IMG/VR virus record: IMGVR_UViG_3300039305_000005
From: a virus
Direction: 5' to 3' (one strand)
Length of the DNA: 41,493 bases
Part shown: positions 2,040 through 40,528 of the stretch, piece after piece
How the letters are laid out: each line of letters opens with the position of its first letter
Position numbering within the stretch: the stretch's first letter is position 1
Notes under the pieces: model-generated
The model's input: only the letters and a program-made list of their open reading frames with translations
Databases searched by the model: none
Told to the model about the DNA's origin: nothing
Program-made: the position numbers and the translations under genes

Positions 2040-2051
2040 CAAAGTACTTTG
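2040..2051. repeat. Class-1 palindrome copy (AAGTACTT core)
   Basis: CAAAGTACTTTG. Starts 2 nt after the TAA of 115..2037 and ends 9 nt before ATG 2061. GAGGTG follows immediately. Confidence 0.9.
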
Positions 2052-2060
2052 AGGTGCAAT

Positions 2061-2519
2061 ATGAATATTGATCCCGAGACTCCTTTTGGTGATCCCGTTC
2101 TTCTGTCCGTTGTCGGGTTGATTGCCAAGCATGAATACCTAACGTGTTCGGTTGCGTTTACTTATCAAGGTATAGTCATCGAAGGCAATATCGTTAATGC
2201 GAAAGCATTTTTTGCCAGTTGTTTTGATGAAGTCAGAAGCATGGATGCAATTGGACTTTCGAATTCTCCGAGCATCCCCTATCCTCAGCGAAGCCAGCTG
2301 GAAACAGATTTGATTGCACATCGTAGAGAATCGGAACAAAGGTTTTACGATTTAAAAAGCAATCCGCCGAGTCTTGATTTCGACGGTTATATTCATCTTC
2401 GAGATGCCACCGTCCATACTTCCAGCGGTGGCATCAAGACACCCCTTTGGCGTGGACGTATCGAGAAGATTGATTCTATTTTTAATCTCGGTGGAATTAC
2501 CGCAATTACGACTGAATAA
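2061..2519 (+). CDS. Hypothetical protein (A+T-richer accessory gene)
   Basis: ATG 2061 with GAGGTG 4 nt upstream. The track ORF 1980..2519 was trimmed to the first start that does not overlap the upstream gene. No recognisable motif. Confidence 0.7.
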   Translation: MNIDPETPFGDPVLLSVVGLIAKHEYLTCSVAFTYQGIVIEGNIVNAKAFFASCFDEVRSMDAIGLSNSPSIPYPQRSQLETDLIAHRRESEQRFYDLKSNPPSLDFDGYIHLRDATVHTSSGGIKTPLWRGRIEKIDSIFNLGGITAITTE

Positions 2520-2543
2520 AACCTAACGGATGAGAGGTGACAG

Positions 2544-2798
2544 ATGGAGCGCTCTCTCTTATCGATCTACGCCATTCCCAAGAGTGGCGCGACACTCGAC
2601 CAGTTTCGCTGGTTCGATGCACTTTGCGATTTATCGCAATTCGTCAATCTCGATGGTGATGCCATCCCCAACACAGCCACCCGCGATGAAGCACAAGCGC
2701 TGATCGATCAGCGCGAGAACTGGTTAGCGCAGATCTGCCCCGATGCACTGGCGGAACTGCACAGTACTTTTGATTGGCATCTGAGTGATGCCACGTGA
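2544..2798 (+). CDS. Hypothetical protein
   Basis: 84-codon ORF. GAGAGGTG lies upstream of ATG 2544. Same strand and tight spacing with its neighbours. Confidence 0.6.
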   Translation: MERSLLSIYAIPKSGATLDQFRWFDALCDLSQFVNLDGDAIPNTATRDEAQALIDQRENWLAQICPDALAELHSTFDWHLSDAT

Positions 2799-3159
2799 TG
2801 GAGAGTTTATGTATTCCCCTCCACCGATCCGATATCTTCGCTGTTGTGCCTGTGGCCAGCGCAATGCAACCGTGCAAAATCTGGTGATGTTGCCCTGGCG
2901 TGCTCCGATTGACGGCACCGGATGGAAATGCGAGTACTGCCAGTTGCCTGCTGATGGCGCGCTGGCCGTGGTCTGCGATCGCTGCATCGAGTCGGGCCGC
3001 ATTCCGTCGCGAGCCTGTTACGGCAAACCGGAAGACAACCAACGCATCAAGATCGAGCAGCTGCAGGATCGACCGTTCGAGCATCTGAGCGAGTGCCGCC
3101 TGGGCGATCCCAATGATGTGCAGGATCTGGTTTGTTCGGAAGAGGTCAAAGTACTTTGA
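2785..3159 (+). CDS. Cys-rich (zinc-ribbon-like) hypothetical protein
   Basis: Contains CCACG, CEYC and CDRC pairs, consistent with CxxC zinc-binding knuckles. An alternative start at ATG 2806 lies behind GGAGAG. The stop TGA is at 3157-3159. Confidence 0.6.
   Translation: MMPRDGEFMYSPPPIRYLRCCACGQRNATVQNLVMLPWRAPIDGTGWKCEYCQLPADGALAVVCDRCIESGRIPSRACYGKPEDNQRIKIEQLQDRPFEHLSECRLGDPNDVQDLVCSEEVKVL
3147..3158. repeat. Class-1 palindrome copy (AAGTACTT core)
   Basis: CAAAGTACTTTG. Overlaps the TGA stop (3157-3159) of 2785..3159 and sits 4 nt from the stop of the convergent gene 3163..4128. Confidence 0.9.
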
Positions 3160-3162
3160 TAA

Positions 3163-4128
3163 CTAACCGGGAAAGGCCTTGTTTTTAATAAGAACCCTTT
3201 CGAGTTCCTCATTAGCTTGGGTTATGAGTTTCCCTGCCTCCTTGAGTGCAGTTCGGGCTTGTGTCATTAGTTCCTCAGACCTGGCCCCGTAGCCTTGTTC
3301 TGCTAACTTCAAACCTTCGAACCCTTTTTCGCTGGAAAGACGTATCAGTCTGTCTGTTTCCTCGAACTGTTTAGGCACCGAACATTTCTTGTATTCATCA
3401 AAGTGCTTTGCCAAGCTCGCCTGTGCCGCCTGGGCTTCAGCAACAGTGTGCGGGTCAGTTGGATTGTCGATAACCATGTTCATCGCAAACGCGTGATAAG
3501 ATTTGAGATATTCGATTTCTTCAACGGAAAATATGGGTGCCCACATTTTAAGCACTGAATCTGATACTTTCGTACTTTTGGGCGGAAACAGGAACAAGAG
3601 CGCATGGTGATCTTTTGACAGAATGTCTATGGCCTCATCAAATCGTTGTTGGGCATCGTTAAAGGTCGAGATGACGTTATCAACCGAACCGACGGGCGCT
3701 CCAATAGCGTATTGGTAAACCAGCGCCAGGGCAGATGATGCCGATTCAAGCCCCAGGCCAATCGGGTGATGCAGAGTCTCGAATCGTGGCGGACAAGGAA
3801 GGTCCTGGAAGCGACCCTTCATTCCCTCGAAATTGGAAACATGAATCTCTAAATCATGTTGGGATAAATTTATGTTTTTCTTTACATAATTGAATTCAGC
3901 GAGAGCAGTGCTGATGTTACCGATGTATTCCATTTCAGCTTTCGACAGAGGCTTTGATTTTTGAGCAGTGGGCTTTTTTGCCGCAGTTGGTCGAGCTATC
4001 TTTGCCGGCGCCTTTGTCTGCTTTTTGGTAACAATCTTGGGTTTTGATGATGAAGCTTTTCCTGCCGAGCAGACGGGACTGGTGGATAGAGCAGCGGAGA
4101 GAATTAACAAACGTGCAAAATGTTTCAT
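3163..4128 (-). CDS. Secreted or envelope-associated hypothetical protein (A+T-rich moron candidate)
   Basis: The start at 4128 gives the signal-peptide-like sequence MKHFARLLILSAALSTSPVCSAG. A K/P/A-rich linker follows. The gene is antisense to its flanking genes and visibly A+T-richer. Confidence 0.75.
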   Translation of the reverse strand: MKHFARLLILSAALSTSPVCSAGKASSSKPKIVTKKQTKAPAKIARPTAAKKPTAQKSKPLSKAEMEYIGNISTALAEFNYVKKNINLSQHDLEIHVSNFEGMKGRFQDLPCPPRFETLHHPIGLGLESASSALALVYQYAIGAPVGSVDNVISTFNDAQQRFDEAIDILSKDHHALLFLFPPKSTKVSDSVLKMWAPIFSVEEIEYLKSYHAFAMNMVIDNPTDPHTVAEAQAAQASLAKHFDEYKKCSVPKQFEETDRLIRLSSEKGFEGLKLAEQGYGARSEELMTQARTALKEAGKLITQANEELERVLIKNKAFPG

Positions 4129-4182
4129 GGCCGTACCATAACACAACAGCCGCCGATTTCGGAAATCGACAAACTTTGTTCC

Positions 4183-4191
4183 AAGTACTTT
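4183..4191. repeat. Class-1 palindrome copy (AAGTACTT core)
   Basis: CCAAGTACTTTG in the divergent intergenic region, 54 nt upstream of the minus-strand start at 4128. Confidence 0.9.
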
Positions 4192-4203
4192 GATTTGTAC
4201 CAG

Positions 4204-4236
4204 AGCCCATATTGGTGGTACCGAGTGGGCTTTTTT
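4204..4236 (+). terminator. Weak hairpin plus T-run (possible intrinsic terminator)
   Basis: AGCCCA (4204-4209) pairs with TGGGCT (4226-4231) and is followed by TTTTTT. The stem is short and the loop is 16 nt. Confidence 0.3.
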
Positions 4237-4317
4237 CCCTCGTACATTTACACGCGATAATGGTAATTTAAAAGAGTAAACTTTTATTCGAACCTAACTA
4301 AACAGCAACTTCTTTCT

Positions 4318-4347
4318 TACCAATAGCGTCGAGATGCGTGGTAAAAT
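4318..4347 (+). promoter_or_regulatory. Sigma70-like promoter candidate with extended -10
   Basis: TGgTAAAAT at 4339-4347, with a weak -35 (TTACCA) upstream. The predicted TSS is about 4354, which places class-1 copy 4368-4377 in the leader of the 4393 gene. Confidence 0.35.
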
Positions 4348-4367
4348 CTCCCTGGGCATGACACGTT

Positions 4368-4377
4368 AAAGTACTTT
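4368..4377. repeat. Class-1 palindrome copy (AAGTACTT core)
   Basis: AAAGTACTTT, ending 15 nt before GTG 4393. Confidence 0.9.
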
Positions 4378-4392
4378 ATTTGTACGCCTGGA

Positions 4393-4767
4393 GTGCGCGT
4401 GCCCGACCTCTTTCACACCCTATTCCCCGACTCTGAGGAAATCTATACCCTCGAAGAAATCGCCACGCACCTGAACAAGAATTACGATCAGGCGTGCCAC
4501 GCGCAGCACACGCTATCGATGCGCACCGCAACATCGGCAGCCGTGCAGCCTCTCGATGATAAGCGCCCTGCTCATTACTCGCCCGAGGCGGCGCGTCTGA
4601 TCGGTCGCCACCTGGTGCGTGGTGTCGAACGCGAAGTGTTGAAGAGAGAAAGAGACCGTCGAGATGCTGCCTTGCTCGAAGCGGTGTTAGCGAACCAGAT
4701 CGTGTTGTTGGCTATGGCGGATGTTTTAACGCAGCTTTTAAAGAAAGATTCGCCAGAGTCCAAGTAG
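4393..4767 (+). CDS. Hypothetical protein (possible regulator)
   Basis: 124-codon ORF with a GTG start behind CTGGAG. The function is not recognisable. Confidence 0.65.
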   Translation: MRVPDLFHTLFPDSEEIYTLEEIATHLNKNYDQACHAQHTLSMRTATSAAVQPLDDKRPAHYSPEAARLIGRHLVRGVEREVLKRERDRRDAALLEAVLANQIVLLAMADVLTQLLKKDSPESK

Positions 4768-4929
4768 ATTCCCACTTCCGTCAAGTTACGCTAATTGCGG
4801 CACACACAACGCGAGTGGCGCATGGCACGATAAGGATACCGCTGTGATTAAAGTGAAGAATGAGTCACATTTTGCGCTTCAGCGGTTCTCATAACGAACA
4901 ATAGAACCATTACGTTTTGGAGCCTTATC

Positions 4930-5301
4930 GTGAAAACCATTCCTAACTCAACAGTTTCGCCCGCACATTTCCCCGCCAAGGGAATGCCCCTGCCGACGCC
5001 GGCCAGCGCCGATATCAGTGCCAAGATCGATTTACTCTTGTCTCGCTTGCCCCAAGATGCGCCCTTCTGGCAGCCAAGCGATATCGCGCCGATTTTAAAT
5101 CTGAGTGATAGCGGCTTTACCAAGTACTGTCGCAACTATCGCGGCCTACAGCCGTGGAGAGGCAGCTATCGTTTCTTCCTGGATGATCCTGGTCACATGA
5201 AAAAGCTGCGCGGACTGCTCACCGTGATTCTGTGGTCCGGTCTCAAGTTGCCCGAAGATCTGCGCCCGATCCGGAACCGTCGCGGCGTTCGCGTCCATTA
5301 A
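4930..5301 (+). CDS. Hypothetical protein (possible DNA-binding regulator)
   Basis: GTG 4930 behind TGGAG. The segment SDIAPILNLSDSGFTKYCRN looks HTH-like by eye only. Confidence 0.6.
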   Translation: MKTIPNSTVSPAHFPAKGMPLPTPASADISAKIDLLLSRLPQDAPFWQPSDIAPILNLSDSGFTKYCRNYRGLQPWRGSYRFFLDDPGHMKKLRGLLTVILWSGLKLPEDLRPIRNRRGVRVH

Positions 5302-5304
5302 AAG

Positions 5305-5317
5305 TGACCCTGGGTCA
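5305..5317. repeat. Class-2 palindrome TGACCCTGGGTCA
   Basis: Starts 3 nt after the TAA (5299-5301). The extended element AAAGTGACCCTGGGTCATATCTCAGTCACAAT resembles the element at 28483-28514. Confidence 0.9.
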
Positions 5318-5365
5318 TATCTCAGTCACAATCTCTAAATTGCACAATTCCATCGTTTAAACCGA

Positions 5366-5437
5366 GAAAAGCCAGGCCGACAGCGCCCGATCAATTTGAT
5401 CAATCTACCGGCGGGAAAGAGCGCGGCCTGGCTTTTC
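5366..5437. promoter_or_regulatory. Perfect 14-bp inverted repeat flanking a 44-nt spacer, abutting the endolysin start
   Basis: GAAAAGCCAGGCCG (5366-5379) and CGGCCTGGCTTTTC (5424-5437). ATG 5440 follows 2 nt later. This could be a terminator or attenuator-like stem, or a protein binding site. Confidence 0.5.
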
Positions 5438-5439
5438 TA

Positions 5440-6087
5440 ATGAAACTTCGCAACACCCTTCACCGTTTCCGTGGCGTTTTGATGTTAGGTTTGGCCTTTA
5501 CCGCACTGGTTGGCATAGCCACCGCATCCAGTGTGAACGCCGATCTGGTTCGCCGTTCCAATAACGCGACGCGTTTGCAGGAACTGAACCCCTACATGCG
5601 CCCCAAAGTCGCCGCTGTTGTTTCCGATCTGGAGCGCCACGGCTTAAAGCCGCTCATTGATGGCGCGATCTTTCGCACGCCGGCGGAACAGGCCGCGCTG
5701 GTGCGTAAAGGCCACTCCAAAGTACTTTACAGCTACCATAACGCTAATACGTGCGATGGCCGTGCACGTCCGTGTTCGCCCAAAGCTGACTCACTCGCCG
5801 CTGACATCGTGGATGGTCAGTTGTTTTGGTCTGCTGGCACACCGTTCTGGTTGAAGCTCGCGAGTTCTGCCCAAAGTCACGATCTCGATTCTGGGATCTA
5901 CTGGGGTTTGAGTGAAGCCCGGCGCAAGATGCTGCGCGATGTCATCGAGTCGAAGCAATGGAACGCGCAGCCGCGTTTAGGCTGGGACACCGCACACGTC
6001 CAGGTGCGCGGTTTATCGCTGGTGCAGGCCAAAGCCGGTAAACGCCTGGTGATGGTGAACGGGCGCAAAGTCATCGTATCACGTTGA
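5440..6087 (+). CDS. Putative endolysin, peptidase M15 (VanY / L-Ala-D-Glu peptidase-like), with N-terminal signal anchor
   Basis: N-terminal hydrophobic segment VLMLGLAFTALVGIATA. The H/D/H-type pattern SYHNAN...AADIVD...WDTAHVQV is typical of M15 zinc peptidases. The gene sits upstream of the terminase genes. Confidence 0.7.
   Translation: MKLRNTLHRFRGVLMLGLAFTALVGIATASSVNADLVRRSNNATRLQELNPYMRPKVAAVVSDLERHGLKPLIDGAIFRTPAEQAALVRKGHSKVLYSYHNANTCDGRARPCSPKADSLAADIVDGQLFWSAGTPFWLKLASSAQSHDLDSGIYWGLSEARRKMLRDVIESKQWNAQPRLGWDTAHVQVRGLSLVQAKAGKRLVMVNGRKVIVSR
5719..5728. repeat. Class-1 palindrome copy (AAGTACTT core)
   Basis: CCAAAGTACTTTAC inside the endolysin CDS, read as S-K-V-L-Y. Confidence 0.9.
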
Positions 6088-6176
6088 TGAGGTGATATGG
6101 ATTTATTTCGCTTCTTACTCGCGTTTGATGTTCCCTCGCTGCAGCATTTTATGAGCTGCTTTTATCTCCTACGGTT

Positions 6177-6347
6177 ATGGATCCCTTAACTCTGATCTCG
6201 ATCGGTTCGTTTGTGCTCGATATCGCCAGCATTGTGCTGGCGGTTTGGTTCATGCGGCGCGAGCGCGAGCTGGAAGAAGAGAATAAGCGCCTGCAGGCCG
6301 AAAACCTTTGGCTGTACAAACACGCGCTGGCCGAAGCCCCTCTGTAA
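6177..6347 (+). CDS. Small membrane protein (56 aa); holin or spanin-like candidate
   Basis: MDPLTLISIGSFVLDIASIVLAVWFMRRERELEEENKRLQAENLWLYKHALAEAPL: one TM segment followed by a charged coiled segment. It lies between the endolysin and TerS and is below the ORF-track size cutoff. Confidence 0.4.
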   Translation: MDPLTLISIGSFVLDIASIVLAVWFMRRERELEEENKRLQAENLWLYKHALAEAPL

Positions 6348-6355
6348 GTACTTTT
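6346..6355. repeat. Class-1 palindrome copy (AAGTACTT core)
   Basis: AAGTACTTTT overlaps the TAA (6345-6347) of the small ORF. ATG 6356 follows directly. Confidence 0.9.
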
Positions 6356-6895
6356 ATGGCACGTGGTATCCAACTGACCGACGAAAAGCGCGCACAAGTC
6401 ATCGCGGCGTTAGCCGCTGGTGATGGTGTGCGCGAAGTGTCGCGCCGGCTCGATGTGCCGGTGTCGACCGTTTCGCGGCTGAAAAACGAGACGATGCCCA
6501 AAGTACTTCGCGAAAGTGTTCCACCGGTTGAGACACCTGACGAACCAATCGGCTTTATTCCGATCGATGATGACGAAGGCGCGCTGATCGACGCGGAATT
6601 CGAGCGCCAGCACCAGCGCGAGCAGCTCGCCGATGAGTGCGAGATGGATCCTGGAACACTCGCGAACCTGGAACAGGTTGGAACACAAAAAAAATCACTG
6701 CACCAGCTCGTCGCCGATCTACTGACGGAAAACCTGCTCACCCTGGCCGCGCACGCCAAGATGTCCCGCGATCCGAAATGGTTCGCACGCCAGGGCGCGG
6801 AGGCGATGGGCATTTTCGATGGTGTGATGTCGGATAAGACGATCCGCATCCTGGAAGCCGCTGCAGCGGCGCAACCTCTGGACAATGGCAACTAA
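6356..6895 (+). CDS. Putative terminase small subunit (N-terminal HTH)
   Basis: The HTH-like sequence GVREVSRRLDVPVSTVSRLK sits at the N-terminus. The gene overlaps the TerL start (ATG 6885; stop 6893-6895). The track ORF 6308 was trimmed to ATG 6356. Confidence 0.6.
   Translation: MARGIQLTDEKRAQVIAALAAGDGVREVSRRLDVPVSTVSRLKNETMPKVLRESVPPVETPDEPIGFIPIDDDEGALIDAEFERQHQREQLADECEMDPGTLANLEQVGTQKKSLHQLVADLLTENLLTLAAHAKMSRDPKWFARQGAEAMGIFDGVMSDKTIRILEAAAAAQPLDNGN
6500..6508. repeat. Class-1 palindrome copy (AAGTACTT core)
   Basis: CCCAAAGTACTTCG inside the TerS CDS, read as P-K-V-L-R. Confidence 0.9.
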
Positions 6896-8477
6896 AGCAA
6901 AATCTTCGACAAAGCGCCCGGCTGGGTTTTCCCGCCGGGCTTCTGCCTTTTTAGCGGCAGCCGTGGCCAGTGCGTTCGCGCCGGTGATGGAGCCGCTTTT
7001 CAACTTCGCACCTGGTGCGCTGGAAGCGCGCGATGCCGCTCGCGAAAAGCTCGCAGCTGAACGCGCAGCGCTAACTGAAGACAAGCTATCGTTTCGCGAA
7101 TTCGTTTCCCTGGTCAATCCAAAATATCGTTGGTTCAAACACTGCGAAGTACTTGGGGATGTTCTGCAGCGTGTGGCCGATGGCGAGATCGATCGCTTGA
7201 TGATCTTCATGCCACCGCGTCACGGCAAAAGCGAAGAAACCTCACGACTCTTCACCGCTTACTTTTTGTATCGCTATCCAAACCGCTGGGTAGGTCTGGC
7301 GTCGTATGCCGCTGATCTGGCCTATACGCTGTCACGAGCGGCGAAAGATAATTTCTTAGCTTCTGGTGGTCAGATCCGCTGGGATGCCAAAGGCGTGAAA
7401 CACTGGCAGACCGAACAGGGCGGCGGCTTGTGGGCTGCCGGCGTTGGCGGTCCCATGACCGGCAAGGGCTGGCATCTCGGAATTATCGACGATCCGCTCA
7501 AGAATGCGGAACAGGCGGCGTCGCTCAAAATTCGTGAGAAACAGAAAGAATGGTTTCAAAGCTCTTTCTCTACTCGAGAAGAACCCGAGGGCGGCGCGCT
7601 CATTTTCATCCTGACGCGGTGGAACGAGGATGACCTGGCCGGCTGGCAGCTCGCCAGTGAAATGGGGCTCGAAGCCGATGAAGCGCAGCGCTGGCATATC
7701 ATCAACTTTCCGGCCCTGGCCGAAAGTGAAGAGGAAGCGCCTGAGTTTCCGGCCAGCTGCACCGTCGAGCCGGATTGGCGCAAGCCTGGTGAGGCGTTGT
7801 GTCCCGAACGCTATAACGTCAAAAAGTTAAAGCGTATCGCGGCGCAAGTCGGCACCTACTTCTGGAACGCGCTATTTCAGCAGCGACCGCGCCCATTAGA
7901 AGGCGCCTTCTTCAAAGCCGATTGGTTTAAGAACATCGTTGGCGCGATCCCTGAAGACTGCAAGCTGGTGCGCTATTGGGACAAAGCGGGTAGTGCGGGC
8001 AAGGGCGATTACACCGTCGGCGTTTTGATGGCGCGCTGGCTCGACGAAGATGGCATTGCAACGTTCTTTATCGTCGACGTGGTGCGTGGCCAGTGGGAAG
8101 CGATCGACCGCGAGCGCGAGATCCGCAAAGTCGCGATGCGTGACGAGTCGCTGTATGGCGAAGGGCGCATCACGATCTGGATGGAGCAAGAAGGTGGCAG
8201 CGGCGGCAAGGAATCGGCGCAGGCGTCCGTGCGTCGCCTGGAAGGCTACAGCGTGCGCACTGAGACTGTTACGGGCAAGGGTGATAAATCCTTGCGCGCG
8301 GATCCGTTTCGCACCCAGGCCAGTGTGGGCAATATTAAGCTGGTTAAAGGCGATTGGATCGTGCCTTATCTGCGTGAGCTGACAGCGTTCCCGAACGGTC
8401 GCAATGATGATCAAGTTGACGCGACAAGTGGTGCGTTTAACAAGTTGGCGCTGGGTCGACGTTGGGAGTGGAATTAA
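6885..8477 (+). CDS. terL: Terminase large subunit
   Basis: P-loop-like MPPRHGKSE, Walker-B-like GIIDDP, and the C-terminal nuclease motif GRNDDQVDATSGAF typical of phage large terminases. It lies next to the portal module. Confidence 0.92.
   Translation: MATKAKSSTKRPAGFSRRASAFLAAAVASAFAPVMEPLFNFAPGALEARDAAREKLAAERAALTEDKLSFREFVSLVNPKYRWFKHCEVLGDVLQRVADGEIDRLMIFMPPRHGKSEETSRLFTAYFLYRYPNRWVGLASYAADLAYTLSRAAKDNFLASGGQIRWDAKGVKHWQTEQGGGLWAAGVGGPMTGKGWHLGIIDDPLKNAEQAASLKIREKQKEWFQSSFSTREEPEGGALIFILTRWNEDDLAGWQLASEMGLEADEAQRWHIINFPALAESEEEAPEFPASCTVEPDWRKPGEALCPERYNVKKLKRIAAQVGTYFWNALFQQRPRPLEGAFFKADWFKNIVGAIPEDCKLVRYWDKAGSAGKGDYTVGVLMARWLDEDGIATFFIVDVVRGQWEAIDREREIRKVAMRDESLYGEGRITIWMEQEGGSGGKESAQASVRRLEGYSVRTETVTGKGDKSLRADPFRTQASVGNIKLVKGDWIVPYLRELTAFPNGRNDDQVDATSGAFNKLALGRRWEWN
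7147..7154. repeat. Class-1 palindrome copy (AAGTACTT core)
   Basis: GCGAAGTACTTGGG inside the TerL CDS, read as C-E-V-L-G. Confidence 0.9.
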
Positions 8478-8619
8478 CAACTTCTGGATTATCGGCTTTT
8501 CGATATTCCAGGCACTTGTTGCAGTAGAACAGATCGTATTTCCCGACAACACGCTTATGGCTGTTGAGCCTTACCATGCTGCGCAGGAATACCCATCTGT
8601 GATCGCATTGCAGTCTCAT
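8437..8619 (-). CDS. Small Cys/His-containing hypothetical protein
   Basis: The ATG directly follows the TAA of the KTSC gene (TAAATG). It contains QCDH...CNKC. The 3' end overlaps the TerL 3' end antisense by 41 nt. Confidence 0.35.
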   Translation of the reverse strand: MRLQCDHRWVFLRSMVRLNSHKRVVGKYDLFYCNKCLEYRKADNPEVVNSTPNVDPAPTC

Positions 8620-8832
8620 TTAACCCACTTTGCTGGCGCTGAATCGCCCTTTTACATGCTGGTCCAAGTACTTTCCCTTGGATGCAGCGACCATCAACGA
8701 ATGATAGGTCATCGCGGGCACGCTGGCGTATTGATAGGTGCCACCGCTTTTGAATTCGACTTCGAGCACGCGGCTTTGCACATCATAGCCGATGCTGGCC
8801 ACGTTGGATGAGGAAACGGGTGTGCGTTGCAT
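8620..8832 (-). CDS. KTSC domain protein
   Basis: SSNVASIGYD...LEVEFKSGGTYQYASVP...SKGKY matches the KTSC-domain pattern. Confidence 0.75.
   Translation of the reverse strand: MQRTPVSSSNVASIGYDVQSRVLEVEFKSGGTYQYASVPAMTYHSLMVAASKGKYLDQHVKGRFSASKVG
8666..8674. repeat. Class-1 palindrome copy (AAGTACTT core)
   Basis: CCAAGTACTTTCC inside the minus-strand KTSC gene, read as G-K-Y-L-D. Confidence 0.9.
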
Positions 8833-8837
8833 AGTGC

Positions 8838-9641
8838 TTATCTCTCCTTACCAATTGTTACCGTTTTTGCATTGTCGTTACTTATTGCGACGATAGTGCC
8901 CGTGTTTTCAATGACATGCCAGTAATCGCCCTCGTGCGCTAATAAGCGACCTCGAACGATGGTGTTATCTTTTTTGATTTCAATGCTGGTTAATGGTGGT
9001 TCATTCAGGTCTCCGTGTAGAGCTGCAGAAAGAAACATATTGGCGTAGCCAAGACTAAAAATAATCGCCACCACGACAGGAAAAGAAAGATTGTGTTTTC
9101 GTGACTGAGTAGTCACAATTATAAATCCAATCATTGTCAGTCCAGCTACCATGAACCTCGCAATAAAGGGAACCAACATCTGCAAAGGTTGCAATGAACC
9201 AAGTCTTAGTGCTTCCTGTGCTGGAATAACTGAGAAAAGTAGAATCCATATAAGGGCATATTTCATCAAGAATTGATAGAAACCGTTAGGTATCGAGTAT
9301 TTCTTACTCAAAAAGGATCCATCTTGATCCTCTGTAGGATCTCCTTGAAGAAATTCACGCCGGCTTAGGACAATACCGAAGATTATTACCACCAAAAAAG
9401 TTACTGGGCTATACAAAATTGCTTGAAGACCCTGACCAAATACTATTTGCTGAGGAACCATTGTGGCCGCATACCAGGTGGCAGCAAAAGGAAGTTGATA
9501 GGTAAGGTGTATCTGGACCGATAGTAACAAAATACCACACGTATATAAGAACCCTGCCACGGCGGTAATTGCTGATATCAGATCGATCAGATTTGCAAAT
9601 GATTGCTTTGATGATTCCTGCTTCTCTTCTGCCACTTCCAT
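8838..9641 (-). CDS. Multi-pass membrane protein (A+T-rich moron; possible exclusion or abortive-infection function)
   Basis: At least 6 hydrophobic segments, then a soluble C-terminal tail (DNTIVRGRLLAHEGDYWHVIENTGTIVAISNDNAKTV). It is antisense and inserted between TerL and the portal gene. AGGA lies before ATG 9641. Confidence 0.75.
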   Translation of the reverse strand: MEVAEEKQESSKQSFANLIDLISAITAVAGFLYTCGILLLSVQIHLTYQLPFAATWYAATMVPQQIVFGQGLQAILYSPVTFLVVIIFGIVLSRREFLQGDPTEDQDGSFLSKKYSIPNGFYQFLMKYALIWILLFSVIPAQEALRLGSLQPLQMLVPFIARFMVAGLTMIGFIIVTTQSRKHNLSFPVVVAIIFSLGYANMFLSAALHGDLNEPPLTSIEIKKDNTIVRGRLLAHEGDYWHVIENTGTIVAISNDNAKTVTIGKER

Positions 9642-9719
9642 TCCTGTTAATTCAAATTGACTTTCCTATTTTAGTCCGTTTCTCGTGCTTACACGTACCC
9701 CTGCATTAAACAGCTGGGT

Positions 9720-11033: not shown

Positions 11034-11034
11034 C

Positions 11035-13701: not shown

Positions 13702-13706
13702 AAAGT

Positions 13707-13719
13707 TGACCCAGGGTCA
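13707..13719. repeat. Class-2 palindrome TGACCCAGGGTCA
   Basis: Starts 5 nt after the TAA (13699-13701) of the protease fusion gene. Confidence 0.9.
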
Positions 13720-13725
13720 GAATTG

Positions 13726-13775
13726 AACGTCGAGTAAGTGTTTTTCCGCTTGCTCGACGTTTTCTTTTTCTTTTT
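13726..13775 (+). terminator. Intrinsic terminator
   Basis: AACGTCGAG (13726-13734) pairs with CTCGACGTT (13753-13761), followed by the T-rich run TTCTTTTTCTTTTT. Confidence 0.6.
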
Positions 13776-14357: not shown

Positions 14358-14368
14358 GTTTTGTATCC

Positions 14369-29139: not shown

Positions 29140-29346
29140 ATGAAAACCACTGAACGTGTCGTGATCGGCACCACGCTGGGCCTGTTGGCCTGGGAAGGTT
29201 TCACCTTCATCAATCGCGAAAAGAAAGACACCATCTCCGAAATTGTCTGGGGCTGGAATAAGCGCACGCCGCTGGTGGCGTTTGCGATCGGCCTGTTGTG
29301 CGGCCATTGGTTCTGGCAGAAAGCCGAAAAGGACACCAACGAATGA
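29140..29346 (+). CDS. Small two-TM membrane protein (holin-like topology)
   Basis: MKTTERVVIGTTLGLLAWEGFTFIN...PLVAFAIGLLCGHWFW. ATG lies 2 nt after the upstream TAA. The track ORF 29020 was trimmed. Confidence 0.55.
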   Translation: MKTTERVVIGTTLGLLAWEGFTFINREKKDTISEIVWGWNKRTPLVAFAIGLLCGHWFWQKAEKDTNE

Positions 29347-33086: not shown

Positions 33087-33095
33087 AAAGTACTT
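33087..33095. repeat. Class-1 palindrome copy (AAGTACTT core)
   Basis: Ends 21 nt before the integrase ATG 33117. The 17-mer TCAAAGTACTTCCCGGT (33085-33101) is identical to 40164-40180. Confidence 0.9.
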
Positions 33096-33116: not shown

Positions 33117-34322
33117 ATGGCCACATCACTCGCGCGGGCCATTCCCGTCGATGATGTTCAAGAAACTGACCCAAGGTCAGATTTTCGAACGTCAGCTTAT
33201 ACCCAACCTTTTCCACACCCTGTACAACCTCACACCGGCCAAACCGCAATCCCCTTTTTGCAAAGCGTTGGCGGCGCCGGTGGACGCTTTGTCGAAGAAC
33301 CGATCGAGGCCGAAGTACTTTCGAGCGAACCCGTGCAGCCGGCACTGATCGAGGTCAGCGACACGCAGCTCGCGCTCGCACCCACGCCACACCTGGTCGA
33401 AGTCGATGTCGTGGCGATGCTGCTCGAAGATAAATCGAGCGCGGCCACTCGCAAAGCGTATGTGGCGGGCCTGAAGCATTTCTTTGGCAACGATCCCAAT
33501 CCTGCCGAAGTGATGGCGTTCCTGCAGCTCGATCGTCGATCGATGGCGATGAGCCTGGCGCAGTATAAAACCCGAATGCGCAAGGCGGGCTGTCGTGGTG
33601 CCGTTATCAACCAGCGTTTGTCCGCAGTCCGCTCGCTGCTCAAATATGCCAACAACCTGGGATTCTGCGATGTGGATCCGCGCGGCCTGGTCGACTCCGA
33701 AAAGATCGCTGCTTATCGTGATACCAGCGGCGTCGATGTGCCCACGTTCATCAAGATCCGCAAAGTACCGGCGAAACGCTACGGTGCTAAATCGGTGCGC
33801 GGCTTGCGCGATATCGCTTTGCTCGATGTCATGTTCGAATTGGGTCTACGTCGCAGCGAAGTGTGCAAACTCAACGTGGAAGACTTCTCGATTCCACAAA
33901 AGAAACTCTGGATCGATGGTAAAGGCCAGCATGGTCAGAAGGTGCCGATGACACTTTCACCAGGCCTGGTCAAAGCGATTGCCGATTATATCCTGGCTGC
34001 CGGCCACGCGGGCGATCGCAAAGGTCCGCTCTTTCGCAACTTGCACCACAATCCAGCGGTTGCCGGCCAACGCTTGACCGGCGACGGTTTGCGCTACCTG
34101 GTGCGCGAGTATGGTCAGGCGGTCGGCATCGAGTCGTTTGCACCGCACAAAATCAGACATACGAGCATCACAGCTGCAGCACTGGCCACCAATGGCAACA
34201 TGACCAAAGTGCAGAAACATAGCCGCCATAAGAAGCTCGAAACCGTGGCGATCTATGTCGATAACGCCAATGATGCGCAGGGCGAAGTCGGTTCATTGCT
34301 GGCGGGCATGGTGCGAAAATAA
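33117..34322 (+). CDS. int: Tyrosine recombinase / integrase
   Basis: Catalytic pattern GLRRSE (Arg), HKIRHTSIT (H-x-x-R) and HKKLETVAIY (His...Tyr). A SAM-like core-binding region (ATRKAYVAGLKHFF) is present. AGGAGA RBS. The N-terminal extension is about 100 aa. Confidence 0.92.
   Translation: MATSLARAIPVDDVQETDPRSDFRTSAYTQPFPHPVQPHTGQTAIPFLQSVGGAGGRFVEEPIEAEVLSSEPVQPALIEVSDTQLALAPTPHLVEVDVVAMLLEDKSSAATRKAYVAGLKHFFGNDPNPAEVMAFLQLDRRSMAMSLAQYKTRMRKAGCRGAVINQRLSAVRSLLKYANNLGFCDVDPRGLVDSEKIAAYRDTSGVDVPTFIKIRKVPAKRYGAKSVRGLRDIALLDVMFELGLRRSEVCKLNVEDFSIPQKKLWIDGKGQHGQKVPMTLSPGLVKAIADYILAAGHAGDRKGPLFRNLHHNPAVAGQRLTGDGLRYLVREYGQAVGIESFAPHKIRHTSITAAALATNGNMTKVQKHSRHKKLETVAIYVDNANDAQGEVGSLLAGMVRK
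33167..33179. repeat. Class-2 palindrome, imperfect (TGACCCAAGGTCA)
   Basis: 5-bp arms TGACC/GGTCA, inside the integrase N-terminal coding region. Confidence 0.6.
33313..33321. repeat. Class-1 palindrome copy (AAGTACTT core)
   Basis: GAAGTACTTTCGA inside the integrase CDS, read as E-V-L-S. The same 13-mer occurs at 29406-29418. Confidence 0.9.
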
Positions 34323-34438: not shown

Positions 34439-34451
34439 TGACCCTGGGTCA
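34439..34451. repeat. Class-2 palindrome TGACCCTGGGTCA
   Basis: Lies immediately after the terminator T-run. It overlaps the stop codon (34449-34451) of the minus-strand gene 34449..34640. Confidence 0.9.
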
Positions 34452-34700: not shown

Positions 34701-35057
34701 TTAGTTCTGGCGCCCCTGATCGCGCAGCATCAGATTCAACGTGCGCATCGCGATCAGCGCCTGCATATCGGCATTGTGCAACAGATCGGGTTCGACGGGA
34801 AGTCCGACGGCTCCCTGGCGCCGATGCGCCAAAAGTACTTTGGCCGTGGCATCACTCGCCTTCACCGCAAAATCAATCGTTGAGCGCGCCACCACGCTAA
34901 AGTGCGTCTGGTCGCCAAAACGCCAGGTGATTTCCGCACCGGTCGCACGCGCCAGCTCGACGATCGCCCTATCGAACGTTTCGCGCATAAAAATGGGATC
35001 AACACCGTCGGGCATTCCCGTCGAATCGACAGCAATAGTGATTTTAATTCTGTTCAT
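34701..35057 (-). CDS. Hypothetical early protein
   Basis: The start at 35057 (MNRIKITIAVD...) overlaps the upstream stop as ATGA. Confidence 0.65.
   Translation of the reverse strand: MNRIKITIAVDSTGMPDGVDPIFMRETFDRAIVELARATGAEITWRFGDQTHFSVVARSTIDFAVKASDATAKVLLAHRRQGAVGLPVEPDLLHNADMQALIAMRTLNLMLRDQGRQN
34832..34841. repeat. Class-1 palindrome copy (AAGTACTT core)
   Basis: CCAAAAGTACTTTGG inside the minus-strand CDS, read as A-K-V-L-L. Confidence 0.9.
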
Positions 35058-35383
35058 GAGTTCTCTCTCTGTTCGTGAACGGCCAATCGCCACACGTATT
35101 CCTTACCGCCTTCCGCGACGGCTTGACTCGCGCGCGAAACGATCCCCATTTTGTAAAGTTTGATGAGTCGCTGGTTGAGTGCGTTAGCGTTGACCTTCCT
35201 CGGCCATTTTTCTGCAAGCTCTCGTGTTGTAGCAGGCTGGTGCTTCCTCAGCATTTCGATAGTTTCGAGGATTACCAGCGGTACAATCGCTTCCAGCTTC
35301 TCTTTAACGAGATGCAAGCTAACTACGTCTTCGACGGTTTCGGCAGTAAGGACCAATTGGCCAGGCTTAGATTCAATCTTCAT
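35054..35383 (-). CDS. Winged-helix (MarR/ArsR-like) DNA-binding protein
   Basis: TTRELAEKWPRKVNANALNQRLIKLYKMGIVSR...EYVW. ATGA coupling at both ends. Confidence 0.65.
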   Translation of the reverse strand: MKIESKPGQLVLTAETVEDVVSLHLVKEKLEAIVPLVILETIEMLRKHQPATTRELAEKWPRKVNANALNQRLIKLYKMGIVSRASQAVAEGGKEYVWRLAVHEQRENS

Positions 35384-37434: not shown

Positions 37435-37525
37435 AAACACCTCATTTCAATAGTGGTGAAGAGAAGTAGTAACCGCGCATAGCATCATTGTACCTGATGT
37501 TATGCGCGTGTTGAGTACCAAGTGC

Positions 37526-37534
37526 AAAGTACTT
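37526..37534. repeat. Class-1 palindrome copy (AAGTACTT core)
   Basis: GCAAAGTACTTAG, intergenic. On the minus strand it directly follows the terminator T-run and lies 91 nt upstream of the start at 37434. Confidence 0.9.
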
Positions 37535-37580
37535 AGAAAGGGGAAGAAAAGGAGGCGCGGGCCTGCAGGAGCGCCCGCGC
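37535..37580 (-). terminator. Intrinsic terminator (minus strand)
   Basis: GCGCGGGC (37555-37562) pairs with GCCCGCGC (37573-37580). On the minus strand it is followed by CTCCTTTTCTTCCCCTTTCT. Confidence 0.55.
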
Positions 37581-37591
37581 GAGTAGGGGAG

Positions 37592-38110
37592 TTAAACCAT
37601 ACGCACTTTGAGGGTTTGGCGCTGCATCGAACCGCGACGCACGCTCCACCCAATGACCCAGTGACGGCGCTGGATCGCGGCGGTAATGTCGCGCATTTCG
37701 TCGGGTGTGAGCTGGGTGCGCGAAGTGATTTCTTCACCGATGAATTCCGACAGCGCAGCACACATCAGTTCGCCGTCGCTGGTGTCGAGACCGGCATCAC
37801 GAGCGGCTTTGAACATTTCTTTTTGTGCGGAGAGATAAGCCACTTCATCGGCATCGGGCAGGGTGCGATAAGCAGGGCGGGGAGTTTTGGCCACGGTGGC
37901 CACACGGCACAGCGCAGCCTCGAAAGCGTCGGCTTCGGGCAAGGTCATTTCGACCGTGCTGCCATCGATGGAAGAAAGGCGCGCCATCGCATACTTTTCG
38001 ACGCGCTCGATACTGACAATGTGCGCGACGTTGCGCAAGTAAGTGCGGCCAGCCGCCTCAAAGCGGATAAAGGCCGGTTGTGCAGGGGAAGGGGTTTGAG
38101 AGATAATCAT
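37592..38110 (-). CDS. First gene of the minus-strand early operon (hypothetical)
   Basis: ATG 38110 lies behind AAGGAGA. 172 aa. Confidence 0.7.
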   Translation of the reverse strand: MIISQTPSPAQPAFIRFEAAGRTYLRNVAHIVSIERVEKYAMARLSSIDGSTVEMTLPEADAFEAALCRVATVAKTPRPAYRTLPDADEVAYLSAQKEMFKAARDAGLDTSDGELMCAALSEFIGEEITSRTQLTPDEMRDITAAIQRRHWVIGWSVRRGSMQRQTLKVRMV

Positions 38111-38134
38111 GGATGCAGTCTCCTTGCGAGATTG

Positions 38135-38175
38135 GAGCGCAGTTGTGAATCTGACCAGGATAGGCAACTGCGCTC
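38135..38175. promoter_or_regulatory. Perfect 11-bp inverted repeat in the leader of the minus-strand operon
   Basis: GAGCGCAGTTG (38135-38145) and CAACTGCGCTC (38165-38175), with a 19-nt spacer. Confidence 0.45.
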
Positions 38176-38188
38176 GCTCTTTCCTTTA

Positions 38189-38253
38189 ATTGTAACACTT
38201 GTAACATTGTATAACAAGACTAACTTGTAACATTTGTAAAAATATTTTAGAAT
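38189..38253. promoter_or_regulatory. Divergent promoter/operator region with TTGTAACA repeats
   Basis: TTGTAACA at 38190, 38199 and 38225, plus TTGTATAACA (38207) and TTGTAAAA (38234). Rightward promoter: TTGTAA (38225-38230), 17 nt, TAGAAT (38248-38253). Leftward promoter: TTGTTA, 17 nt, TACAAT, the complement of 38212-38217 and 38189-38194. Confidence 0.5.
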
Positions 38254-38256
38254 GTA

Positions 38257-38463
38257 GTGACAATGGAACAGAGCAACAATGTCGAGCCGATGACAATGGT
38301 TGAAGTGTGCGAAGCCCTGGGTATTTCGCGCATGACAGCACACCGTCGCATTCGCGAGGGTGTGATCAAACCGCTGCCTAAATCACCTGGCCAGCGCCGT
38401 GCCCACAGATTACTTTTTGATCGTGCTGAGATCGAGCGTGTCAAGCAAGAAGGCACGGAATGA
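38257..38463 (+). CDS. Excisionase / MerR-type HTH protein (AlpA-like)
   Basis: MTMVEVCEALGISRMTAHRRIREGVIKPLP. The start is uncertain (GTG 38257, ATG 38263 or ATG 38290). The stop overlaps the parA ATG. Confidence 0.7.
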   Translation: MTMEQSNNVEPMTMVEVCEALGISRMTAHRRIREGVIKPLPKSPGQRRAHRLLFDRAEIERVKQEGTE

Positions 38464-39218
38464 CCCAGATCATCTCGACGATTAACCAAAAAGGTGGCGT
38501 CGGCAAAACCACGACTGCTGTTAATGTCGCTGGTGGTTACGCGGAGCTGGGTAGGCGTGTTTTGCTGATCGATATGGACCCGCAAACCAATGCCAGTGTG
38601 ATGTGTGGCATCCGCGATCCGGAAGAATCAATCTTCGATGTGCTGGTGGATCCGGAAAAGTGTCCGCTCTCCAGCATCATTGTCAGCGGCACAGTCGAGG
38701 GCGTTGATGTGGCGCCCGCGCATCGCGCGCTGGCCGGGCTGGAAATGGCGCTCCAGAACACACCAGGCCGCGAACACGTTCTGCGCGAAGTCATCGAGAC
38801 GGTGAAAGATCGCTATGATGTCATCGTCATCGATAACGGCCCGACGTTGGGGCTGTGGCCAATTATGTCGCTGGTGGCTTCCACGGTGGCACTCGTCATC
38901 GTGAACGGTGAACCGCTGGCGATTGAAGGATTGGCGGAAGTCGAGAAGACCATTAAAGCCGTGCGCCAGCGACTCAACCCGCTGCTGCAGCGCCGGATCG
39001 TGCCCACCATGATCGATCCACGTCGCCCGCTGCACACGAAAATCATTGGATCCGTGCGCGAGGTCTACGGAAAAGACGTTTTCAAAAGCGAGATACCGGA
39101 AAGCGCACATCTCCAAAATGGCGTTATGCGCGGTGGTTGCGTGTTGGCCTATGCACCAAACACAACCGCAGCTGAATCTTATCGAAATTTGACGGGTGAA
39201 TTGAAGCGCTTAAAGTAA
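38460..39218 (+). CDS. parA: ParA partition ATPase
   Basis: Deviant Walker A motif NQKGGVGKTTTAVN. The size and sequence are typical of ParA/Soj proteins. Confidence 0.95.
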   Translation: MTQIISTINQKGGVGKTTTAVNVAGGYAELGRRVLLIDMDPQTNASVMCGIRDPEESIFDVLVDPEKCPLSSIIVSGTVEGVDVAPAHRALAGLEMALQNTPGREHVLREVIETVKDRYDVIVIDNGPTLGLWPIMSLVASTVALVIVNGEPLAIEGLAEVEKTIKAVRQRLNPLLQRRIVPTMIDPRRPLHTKIIGSVREVYGKDVFKSEIPESAHLQNGVMRGGCVLAYAPNTTAAESYRNLTGELKRLK

Positions 39219-39223
39219 TCATC

Positions 39224-40528
39224 ATGGCAGCTCAAAAAACCTCTAAGCCCGCAGCAAAACCAGGCACGGCTAAACGTAAGTCGAAATCAGATCAGGCTTA
39301 CGATGCCTATATGAGCAACATCCTGACGTTGCCCAGCGCTTCCAAGGTCATGCACGGCGAAGATACCGTGTGGCTCGATGTCGAACTAATCGACGATAGC
39401 CCGTTCCAGACACGCGGCGGCATCGATCCCACCGACGTGGATGAGATGGCCACGTCTCTTAATGAAAGCGGCCAACTGCAGGCTGCGATCGTGCGTCCGC
39501 ACCCAACCGAGCCAGATCGCTATCAGCAGGCATTTGCCCACACACGCAAAGCGGCGATCAAAGCCGGCGCCAATGCCGGCAGCCACCTCGAAAATCCTGA
39601 TCTCTACAAAGGTAAGCTGTGGTGCGTTATCCGCGAGCAGCTCACCGATGTGCAGATGATGCAAATGGCGATCGCTGAAAATGATACGCGCAGCGATGTG
39701 AGCGATCTGGAGCGTGCGCGATCGTTCAATCGCTTGCGCGAGATGTTGCCCAGGAAAGCCGGCAAACCAGCACCGCTGGAAGCCGTCGCCAAAGTCGCGG
39801 GCATTGGTTATCGCCAGGTCAAACGCCTGGTCGATTTGCTGGAGCTGCCGGAAGAAATTCAAAAGCAGTTTGTGCGGCCACAGAAGAAAGCGGACGATCA
39901 GAAGGACGACTTCTTTTTACTCAATGAAAGGCATGGCCGCGCACTGTTGCAGTTCCAGGAAGATCCCAAACGCCAGCGGGTATTTTTCCGCGAGATTGTG
40001 CGCCACCAGTGGAGCGGTGCCGAAGCGGAACGCAAAGCCCAGGCGGAACGCGCGCAGCGTGCGCTCCCGTCCGATATCATCGCGGCTAAAGAGCAGGAAA
40101 ACAAAGCCTGGCAGGAACTCAAGCAACGCAACCGCGAGACCGTGGCCAAAGGCGAAGCACCATTCAAAGTACTTCCCGGTGGCGAGACACCGCTCGATCC
40201 CGAAGTCGAGCGCGAGCTGGAACTCGCAGAGATCGAGAATCTTGATGAAGCGGCGATCAAGAAGATGCTGCTTGACACCATGACGCCCGAAGAAATCGCT
40301 GCCCGCAGAAAAGAACTCCAAAAAGTGACCCAGGGCCAGATTGAACCTGAACCCAAAAGCGAGCTGGAGCAAGCGCGCGAAGTACTTTCCGACGTGGTGG
40401 CAAAACTGGAAGGACTCAGCATCACCAAGAAAGAACGCAAGGCCATCAAGTATCATTTAGGTTTCCTGCAACGCCAGGCGGACGAGCTAACCGCGCAACT
40501 GCAACGCATCGACAAGGAAGTTTCTTGA
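39224..40528 (+). CDS. parB: ParB-like partition protein
   Basis: ParB N-terminal box (VELIDDSPFQTRGG...LNESGQLQAAIVRP). HTH (VAKVAGIGYRQVKRLVDLLELPEE). It lies directly downstream of parA. The C-terminus is a long coiled coil. Confidence 0.85.
   Translation: MAAQKTSKPAAKPGTAKRKSKSDQAYDAYMSNILTLPSASKVMHGEDTVWLDVELIDDSPFQTRGGIDPTDVDEMATSLNESGQLQAAIVRPHPTEPDRYQQAFAHTRKAAIKAGANAGSHLENPDLYKGKLWCVIREQLTDVQMMQMAIAENDTRSDVSDLERARSFNRLREMLPRKAGKPAPLEAVAKVAGIGYRQVKRLVDLLELPEEIQKQFVRPQKKADDQKDDFFLLNERHGRALLQFQEDPKRQRVFFREIVRHQWSGAEAERKAQAERAQRALPSDIIAAKEQENKAWQELKQRNRETVAKGEAPFKVLPGGETPLDPEVERELELAEIENLDEAAIKKMLLDTMTPEEIAARRKELQKVTQGQIEPEPKSELEQAREVLSDVVAKLEGLSITKKERKAIKYHLGFLQRQADELTAQLQRIDKEVS
40166..40174. 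repeat. Class-1 palindrome copy (AAGTACTT core)
   Basis: Inside parB, read as F-K-V-L-P. The 17-mer TCAAAGTACTTCCCGGT (40164-40180) is identical to 33085-33101. Confidence 0.9.
40326..40338. repeat. Class-2 palindrome, imperfect (TGACCCAGGGCCA)
   Basis: One mismatch. It shares AAAAGTGACCCAGGG with the element at 28483. It lies inside parB. Confidence 0.6.
40380..40388. repeat. Class-1 palindrome copy (AAGTACTT core)
   Basis: GAAGTACTTTCCG inside parB, read as E-V-L-S. The same 13-mer occurs at 32951-32963. Confidence 0.9.

Follow-up and report, generated by a model that had tools for sequence, protein, structure and literature searches.

Cyanobacterial genomes are known for HIP1, the highly iterated palindrome GCGATCGC, and for alternative highly iterated palindromes (Elhai 2015, PMC4390886; Xu et al. 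2018, PMC5861425). HIP1 reaches densities of 300-2700 per Mb, has lineage-specific extensions and deviates mainly at its outer bases (Elhai, PMC4390886), and the presence or absence of HIP1-type words between related genomes is tied to cognate methyltransferases (PMC4390886; PMC5861425). Here we describe a similar word, the 8-bp palindrome AAGTACTT, which occurs 30 times in IMG/VR virus record IMGVR_UViG_3300039305_000005, a viral DNA of 41,493 nucleotides that we analysed at its full length and call the window. We put at roughly 85% the probability that AAGTACTT is a host-wide iterated palindrome carried by a resident phage-plasmid, and not a system of the phage itself.

Features of a HIP1-type palindrome include over-representation by one to two orders of magnitude, an origin by substitution in all coding frames and in non-coding DNA, deviation at the outer bases and extension by lineage, and AAGTACTT shows these. 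It too is a palindrome of 8 bp, exceeds expectation more than 100-fold and occurs about 0.7-1 times per kb; it has spread by point substitution, not transposition; its core is sharp, six of its 14 one-mismatch variants deviating at an outer base; and it is present or absent between fairly close lineages. The differences are that the word belongs to another phylum (Abditibacteriota-like) and is itself another, A+T-rich word with an AGTACT/GTAC core in a genome of 55% G+C; that a cognate methyltransferase is reported for HIP1, whereas a crude motif screen found none here; and that the word lies on a phage-plasmid and other mobile elements, whereas we found no discussion of phages in the HIP1 studies consulted (PMC4390886, PMC5861425, 10.64898/2026.06.24.733823). 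As the word differs from GCGATCGC and the ArgJ protein found with it affiliates with the Abditibacteriota, AAGTACTT is an analogue of HIP1 and not HIP1 proper.

Other dispersed words are less similar. The DNA uptake sequences of Neisseria and the uptake signal sequences of the Pasteurellaceae, including Haemophilus, occur about once per kb genome-wide, are enriched between genes, occupy permissive coding positions and are found in resident prophages. Their likeness to AAGTACTT is one of density (about 1 per kb) and distribution only; they are asymmetric and AAGTACTT is palindromic. The stoperators of phage L5 and Cluster A and the start-associated sequences of Cluster K resemble it in that one phage genome holds tens of copies of a 12-13-bp word, many of them in short gaps upstream of genes, but they are asymmetric, orientation-biased and phage-specific, being bound by phage functions or associated with them, whereas AAGTACTT is palindromic and equally dense in the chromosome of the likely host. 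The KorB operators of plasmid RK2 and the SopB sites of N15 are, like AAGTACTT, palindromes dispersed on a replicon that encodes a ParB-family protein; they number 4-12, lie mostly at promoters and are confined to their replicon, whereas here there are 30 copies, two thirds of them coding, of a word found across the host chromosome. Repetitive extragenic palindromic elements and miniature inverted-repeat transposable elements were rejected, as two thirds of the copies are in genes and the copies have nothing in common beyond 12-14 bp.

The iterated palindrome in the window

Dinucleotide-preserving shuffles of the window gave 0.20 +/- 0.43 copies of AAGTACTT, with a largest value of 2, against the 30 exact copies observed. 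The word is by a wide margin the most frequent 8-mer, with a density of 0.73 per kb (730 per Mb) and an observed/expected ratio of about 150. The longer 12-mer CAAAGTACTTTG occurs seven times against none expected. A preliminary description of the sequence had reported both counts, had judged the excess to be beyond chance and had proposed the shuffles as a check; our recount and the shuffles bear it out, and the excess stands. The AGTACT hexamer at the centre of the word occurs 37 times against 2.3-7.1 expected (Markov orders 1-3), while the 41 further copies of GTAC outside this context are unremarkable. One-mismatch variants of AAGTACTT are barely enriched (14 against 6.6 expected), and six of these deviate at the outer position only, so the word is sharply defined. 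Its extended consensus is (T/C)CAAAGTACTTTG(A/G). Beyond these 12-14 bp no sequence is common to the copies and the flanking DNA is unrelated. The intervals between copies show no significant regularity (their coefficient of variation is 0.77, where random placement gives 0.96 +/- 0.16). The window carries a 127-bp terminal direct repeat, and is thus a circular or circularly assembled element with the unique length of 41,366 bp already given in the preliminary description.

Ten of the 30 copies lie between genes or across a gene edge, in a sequence of which only 8% is non-coding (binomial P = 8e-5), and the positional bias noted earlier is therefore real in the phage. Intergenic copies are found at 2042-2049 (within the 12-mer CAAAGTACTTTG at 2040-2051, 12 nt before the start at 2061), 4183-4190 (37 nt upstream of the minus-strand gene 3163-4146), 4369-4376 (as the 10-mer AAAGTACTTT, 17 nt before the start at 4393), 14371-14378 (in a full 12-mer, 14369-14380, 19 nt before the major capsid start at 14397), 15807-15814 (10-mer, 13 nt before the start at 15827), 19213-19220 (full 12-mer, 19211-19222, 13 nt before the ATG at 19233) and 33088-33095 (22 nt before the integrase start at 33117). 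The copy at 6346-6353 overlaps the TAA stop of 6177-6347 and lies 3 nt before the TerS start at 6356; that at 23847-23854 (10-mer) fills the 12-nt gap from the tape-measure stop to the start at 23859; and that at 37527-37534 lies in a divergent control region, at the 5' end of the open reading frame (ORF) 37502-38230.

The remaining 20 copies are within genes, in a sequence that is about 92% coding. The copy at 3149-3156, in a full 12-mer (3147-3158), takes in the last codons and stop region of 2785-3159. Further copies lie at 5720-5727 (10-mer) in the endolysin-like gene 5440-6087, 6501-6508 in the TerS gene (6356-6895), 7147-7154 in the TerL gene, 8666-8673 in the minus-strand gene 8620-8832, 11040-11047 (10-mer, codons 2-4) and 12332-12339 in 11035-13701, 18620-18627 in 18204-18650, and 18746-18753 (full 12-mer, 18744-18755) in 18654-19187. 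The tape-measure gene has a copy at 23360-23367 (full 12-mer, 23358-23369), and others are at 25193-25200 in 23859-25541, 26187-26194 in 25642-28194, 28273-28280 (10-mer) in 28198-28431, 29407-29414 in 29298-29888, and 32530-32537 (full 12-mer, 32528-32539) and 32952-32959 in 29888-32974, the latter at its 3' end. The last are at 33313-33320 in the integrase gene, 34833-34840 (10-mer) in the minus-strand gene 34701-35093, and 40167-40174 and 40380-40387 in parB. The AGTACT core without the full word is present at 2763-2768 (cAGTACTt), 2933-2938, 5123-5128 (aAGTACTg), 11820-11825, 24525-24530, 25495-25500 and 41018-41023. All seven of these cores had been listed before, two of them one position early (at 5122 and 25494), as were one copy of the word (19212 for 19213) and its 12-mer (19210 for 19211); all other coordinates were right, and the one-mismatch copies reported at 21461 and 36608 are both present.

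The copies read as codons, 21 when the one overlapping the stop of 6177-6347 is included, fall in all three frames (2, 12 and 7 copies), as had been claimed. The TerL copy illustrates how such a word can be fitted to a protein. The window reads GAA GTA CTT where its two nearest relatives read GAA GTA TTG and GAG GTG CTG, all encoding E-V-L. GTA makes up 8.9% of valine codons and CTT 9.8% of leucine codons, and this copy is built from rare synonymous codons. The proteins of the phage offer 44 positions at which the peptide is compatible with the word, and 21 of these carry AAGTACTT, against 0.44 expected from codon usage. This is a pattern of saturation at the level of the DNA, not of a few sites placed for a regulator, and, in line with the earlier view of selection on the nucleic acid, selection or drive acts there and not on the protein. 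The three A+T-rich accessory genes do indeed lack copies, as had also been remarked, but with 1.6 expected their absence is not significant (P(0) = 0.20).

The word in cellular and viral DNA

We scanned metagenomes for CAAAGTACTTTG followed 40-70 nt on by AAGTACTT, and found at least 120 loci. These include at least 54 contigs, 192 kb in total, with a G+C content of 0.5 or more and 0.9-4.7 copies of AAGTACTT per kb. The motif-rich contigs have a G+C content of about 0.55, as does the phage, and come from a few recurring projects. They carry genes for transketolase, sulphite/nitrite reductase, histidyl-tRNA synthetase, ArgJ, GDP-mannose 4,6-dehydratase, a ROK kinase, an M24 peptidase, a sodium:solute symporter, MFS and branched-chain amino-acid transporters, a MoxR ATPase and HlyD, and are ordinary cellular DNA. 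The ArgJ of one of them, L263, is 68-79% identical to proteins of metagenome-assembled genomes (MAGs) labelled Abditibacteriota and 57% identical to that of Abditibacterium utsteinense. This affiliation fits the Armatimonadota label of the distant matches to the TerL of the phage.

Five further loci were fetched through homologues of ArgJ, blind to the motif. L276, from run SRR35147778, is 15.5 kb long with a G+C content of 0.541 and carries argJ, recA, cinA, hemN and lpxC. It has 16 copies of AAGTACTT (1.03 per kb), with 12 copies of the 10-mer and seven of the 12-mer, and its most frequent 8-mers are all derived from the motif. The same run holds the TerL gene of the phage. L280, 4 kb of a MAG in NCBI labelled Abditibacteriota (GCA_029237645.1), has two copies, both as CAAAGTACTTTG, and three AGTACT cores. 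L277 is a 21.3-kb region of a 3.6-Mb contig (ERZ25039498 contig_19617) with 19 copies (0.89 per kb). In this sister lineage the flanks are CTGC..GCAG; the core sits within CTGCAAGTACTTGCAG, which at several sites extends to the 20-bp perfect palindrome CGCTGCAAGTACTTGCAGCG, and no copy in L277 has the form AAAGTACTTT. The phage and L276 have other flanks (CA..TG), so what surrounds the iterated core changes from one lineage to another. The last two loci, 21.2 kb each from an Abditibacteriota MAG (L278) and from the 7.4-Mb sequence AP024152 (L279), have no copies. ArgJ identity to the motif-rich reference is 65-68% for these motif-free sister lineages and 69-74% for the motif-bearing loci. AAGTACTT is thus a genome-wide highly iterated palindrome, present at about 1 per kb in chromosomal DNA of bacteria whose nearest named relatives are the Abditibacteriota.

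The word behaves alike in the phage and in this DNA. Flank preferences are equal in the phage and L276, with C and A before the word and T and G after it. The proportion of peptide-compatible sites filled is 21 of 44 in the phage, 10 of 19 in L276 and 7 of 11 in L277, against none of 12 in the motif-free L278. Copies in non-coding DNA or at gene edges number 6 of 16 in L276 (9% non-coding) and 10 of 19 in L277 (6% non-coding), beside the 10 of 30 in the phage, and those of the two loci include copies that overlap TAA stops or sit just upstream of starts. Because host copies show the same preference for starts, stops and intergenic DNA, that preference is no evidence of gene regulation by the phage. 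The host ArgJ and the phage proteins also have the same profile of sources in the protein collections (NCBI, JGI and Logan, with two contigs each). The shared run, the flank variant and the equal saturation make an Abditibacteriota bacterium the likely host of the phage.

An alignment of argJ shows motif positions partly common to the motif-bearing lineages. These lineages read KVL, KYF and QSTL where motif-free ones read EFL/EWL, KFC/KHF and QQLL, so the word has also been gained through substitutions that change amino acids. Copies therefore arise by point substitution, synonymous in the TerL gene of the phage and including amino-acid replacements in host argJ.

Six mobile-element-like contigs (L177, L231, L201, L179, L173 and L202) have 2.3-2.8 copies of AAGTACTT per kb, two to three times as many as the chromosomal loci, and the domains encoded on such contigs include a DnaB/AAA_25 helicase, a D5_N primase, DUF3854 and ParB_N. 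L177 has 10 copies in a 1.4-kb non-coding stretch, several at intervals of 63-81 bp and set between short iterons that are unrelated. The proteins common to the motif-rich contigs and the window amount to three weak matches, with no DNA-binding candidate. On a motif-rich host contig the GDP-mannose 4,6-dehydratase gene (L166:308-2401) is broken by a LAGLIDADG domain, probably an intein.

The relatives of the phage do not carry the word. Searches of phage and plasmid databases for near relatives and at the protein level found no close relative of the window, and a TerL scan of the genome collection gave a sole match, 31% identical, in Acidobacteria. The closest contigs, L001, L002, L143 and L144, with TerL proteins 76%, 66%, 78% and 68% identical, have no copies of AAGTACTT and no other iterated 8-12-mer. 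Only three homologues of the ParB of the phage were found, 38-39% identical and on syntenic phage-plasmid-like contigs, also with no copies. Another iterated palindrome, as expected of a co-evolving protein-site pair, was sought in the phage relatives and the ParB-homologue contigs, and none was found. The word thus travels neither with the phage lineage, whose TerL relatives (65-78% identical) are without it, nor with ParB. Nor is it the property of a phage backbone that the preliminary description had suspected.

Among viral contigs, a scan with the 14-mer gave, among the matches listed, chance hits in A+T-rich DNA, and the two-site pattern gave 11 matches but no other hyper-iterated phage. 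Three IMG/VR contigs of an unrelated phage family (L146, L148 and L153, G+C content 0.49) have three copies of AAGTACTT within 130 bp. These lie amid degenerate AAGTATTT, AAGAACTT and AAGTAATT and repeats of CCTTTATCCCG in an iteron-like region, and the contigs have no protein similarity to the window.

Other genes and repeats of the element

The window encodes the small and large terminase subunits TerS (6356-6895) and TerL (6885-8477), a portal (9720-11033), a major capsid protein (14397-15740), a tape measure (21474-23846) and a tyrosine integrase (33117-34322). It also encodes a lambda O-related replication protein (115-2037), ParA (38460-39218), ParB (39224-40528), an HTH_17 protein (38257-38463) and a winged-helix protein (40600-41334). 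Tailed-phage genes together with a replication protein and a ParA/ParB pair fit the plasmid-prophage reading given earlier. Three copies of an iteron-like repeat of about 29 nt, CGAAACATGTTTCGGGCAAAACCGGAAAC, lie within the replication gene at 635-758, and the replication origin may lie within this ORF, as in lambda O.

The 888-amino-acid protein encoded after the portal (11035-13701) has a 2H phosphoesterase domain at residues ~240-350 that matches the anti-CBASS protein Acb1 (CBASS, cyclic-oligonucleotide-based antiphage signalling system; E = 7e-10) and 2'-5' RNA ligase (E = 1e-8). Its N-terminus has a weak prohead-protease match, and it may be an anti-defence domain joined to a head protein. 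Between this gene and the capsid gene lies a tRNA-Lys (anticodon CTT, reading AAG; 13957-14029), preceded by a strong terminator-like hairpin (13725-13762; -29.8 kcal/mol, z = -5.7). Further on, the ATG at 19233, with a full 12-mer and a Shine-Dalgarno sequence upstream, opens a 71-codon frame (19233-19446) that overlaps the 335-codon ORF 19391-20398 in a different frame. In this tail-gene region the two may be either separate genes or parts joined by a frameshift.

A 62-bp divergent region between a leftward operon (ending at 37440) and the ORF 37502-38230 contains the 13-bp inverted repeat GCGCATAGCATCA..TGATGTTATGCGC (37474-37506), which has a stronger claim than AAGTACTT to be a true operator. 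Matches to sigma-70-like promoters in positions 1-20000 of the window number four, below the 11.3 +/- 3.5 of shuffles, a scarcity that fits a host with non-canonical promoters. An association of AAGTACTT with sigma-70 promoters was rejected, promoter-like sites not being enriched at all.

A second dispersed palindrome, TGACCCWGGGTCA, has eight exact copies, at 5305-5317, 13707-13719, 16272-16284, 20403-20415, 25576-25588, 27266-27278, 28487-28499 and 34439-34451. With near-copies at 23272, 33167 and 40326 there are 11 with at most two mismatches, against 0.5 expected. Seven of the eight are in intergenic gaps, and five of these seven sit 4-6 nt past a stop codon. Those at 5305 and 28487 have about 50 nt of similar downstream sequence in common, and the potential hairpins are weak. 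Unlike AAGTACTT, this palindrome is absent from the host loci, and it occurs once in the other 279 loci. It looks phage-specific and may be a genuine regulatory or RNA element of the phage.

Origin and meaning of the iterated palindrome

The equal density, flanks, saturation and positional bias of AAGTACTT across host DNA indicate that its 30 copies are not operators, centromeres or RNA signals of a phage system. The preliminary description had itself said that a like density throughout the host chromosome would make the word a background feature, and the host loci have such a density. Most probably the copies are the imprint of a host-level process acting on all resident DNA. We suggest that a host enzyme with two-fold symmetric recognition of AGTACT, most likely a DNA methyltransferase, could be coupled to a bias in repair or recombination that creates the word and then preserves it. 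A plasmid-prophage of long residence would be pushed to the equilibrium of its host, and the word would still be missing from A+T-rich genes of recent acquisition. This methylation- or repair-linked mechanism, which follows Elhai's proposal for HIP1, is put forward tentatively. Of the four roles suggested in the preliminary description, only that of a DNA modification or restriction target (AGTACT) stays compatible with the results, as a property of the host.

Several points weigh against this picture. The 54 or more rich contigs were ascertained through the motif itself, and the motif-blind host DNA from motif-bearing lineages is small, at 15.5 + 4 + 21 kb (about 40 kb). The link to the host is circumstantial, being drawn from the occurrence of both in one run, their common flank variant and their equal saturation. 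A crude catalytic-motif screen found no methyltransferase in the window or in about 230 kb of host-like DNA. Words one substitution away have observed/expected ratios of 0.65-1.45, without the clear depletion expected from a conversion drive such as a repair of the very-short-patch type. The mobile-element-like contigs, at 2-2.8 copies per kb, exceed the chromosomal level of about 0.9-1.0; purely passive drive to the equilibrium of the host does not predict such an excess, which hints at selection, though ascertainment bias may contribute. The enrichment in non-coding DNA could likewise reflect function rather than relaxed constraint.

The alternative closest to these points is that the host-wide word is kept by selection for a role in DNA exchange or the maintenance of the genome, as a tag for uptake or recombination (now proposed for HIP1 too) or as a site for a nucleoid protein, and that mobile elements carry it for their benefit, for instance because it marks them as 'self' or promotes their recombination or uptake. 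This contests the mechanism only, as a host-wide origin is common to both explanations. The excess on mobile elements and the lack of a clear depletion signature both speak for it, as does a density of about 1 per kb, which matches that of the uptake sequences and is within the range of HIP1. Motif positions are also partly common to lineages with different flanks, and amino acids have been changed to fit the word. HIP1 abundance correlates with DNA-uptake machinery (bioRxiv 10.64898/2026.06.24.733823), and HIP1 is reported to aid transformation in a way that depends on methylation (bioRxiv 10.1101/2024.09.10.611283). However, known uptake sequences are non-palindromic, the search pattern that yielded the dense mobile-element contigs itself favours dense regions, and the phage is slightly under chromosomal density (0.73 against about 1.0 per kb). 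Selection is a possible explanation of the word, though we consider it on the doubtful side.

That the copies are dispersed operators of a dimeric DNA-binding protein of the phage, comparable to L5 stoperators, the conserved inverted repeats of phiC31 or the C1 operators of P1, is very unlikely. The winged-helix protein (40600-41334) and the HTH_17 protein (38257-38463) would be the candidates, silencing or punctuating phage transcription, and we disfavour them. The palindromic site, the third of the copies in short gaps just upstream of starts, the more frequent placement of 10- and 12-mer versions at gene boundaries (by hand count) and the several helix-turn-helix proteins of the phage would all suit such a role. 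Yet the same word with its CA..TG flanks is found in housekeeping genes of the likely-host chromosome at equal or higher density and with the same boundary bias. Half of the peptide-compatible coding positions are filled, a genome-wide saturation; close relatives of the phage are without this or any other iterated word; and one-mismatch variants are barely enriched.

Still less probable is that the copies are parS- or KorB-type sites for the ParB of the phage (39224-40528), serving partition, global silencing or both. The phage does encode ParA and ParB, two copies lie within parB, and KorB of plasmid RK2, with its 12 dispersed 13-bp palindromes, is a precedent. But the word occurs throughout the host chromosome, the only ParB homologues (38-39% identical) are on contigs with no copies and no other iterated palindrome, and thirty sites, two thirds of them coding and in all three frames, are unlike any known centromere. 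A signal for RNA processing or translation is scarcely credible: several copies of the motif stand ahead of a Shine-Dalgarno sequence and an ATG, but its perfect two-fold symmetry and its occurrence on both coding strands, in all frames and throughout host genes point to recognition of double-stranded DNA, and the 10-mer is unable to form a stable hairpin.

A host-wide origin of AAGTACTT removes a tempting reading of this phage as the bearer of a stoperator-like system or a centromere network. Our search found no literature linking the Abditibacteriota or Armatimonadota with an iterated palindrome, within an incomplete coverage of the literature, and the palindrome of this Abditibacteriota lineage has apparently not been described before. 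To our knowledge there are also no described phages of the lineage. The word provides a sequence signature by which a phage can be assigned to such a host, and its flank variant separates sub-lineages.

What HIP1 does has been debated for about 30 years. An iterated palindrome unrelated to it, from a different phylum and with sister genomes that have and lack the word, is a natural comparison. Its core, AGTACT/GTAC, belongs to a type that known restriction-modification enzymes recognise. The comparison could test for a dependence of such words on a cognate methyltransferase or repair system, for a dependence on DNA uptake, and for whether mobile elements carry them under compulsion or through selection. 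We consider the chances about even that this is an independent, non-cyanobacterial iterated palindrome, with diverged flanks and forced amino-acid changes, that fills about half of the coding positions able to take it, is borne by the phage-plasmid at host level and by other mobile elements at up to 2-3 times the host density, and serves as a 'self' mark of the host. If so, mobile elements would exploit that mark rather than merely drift towards the word.

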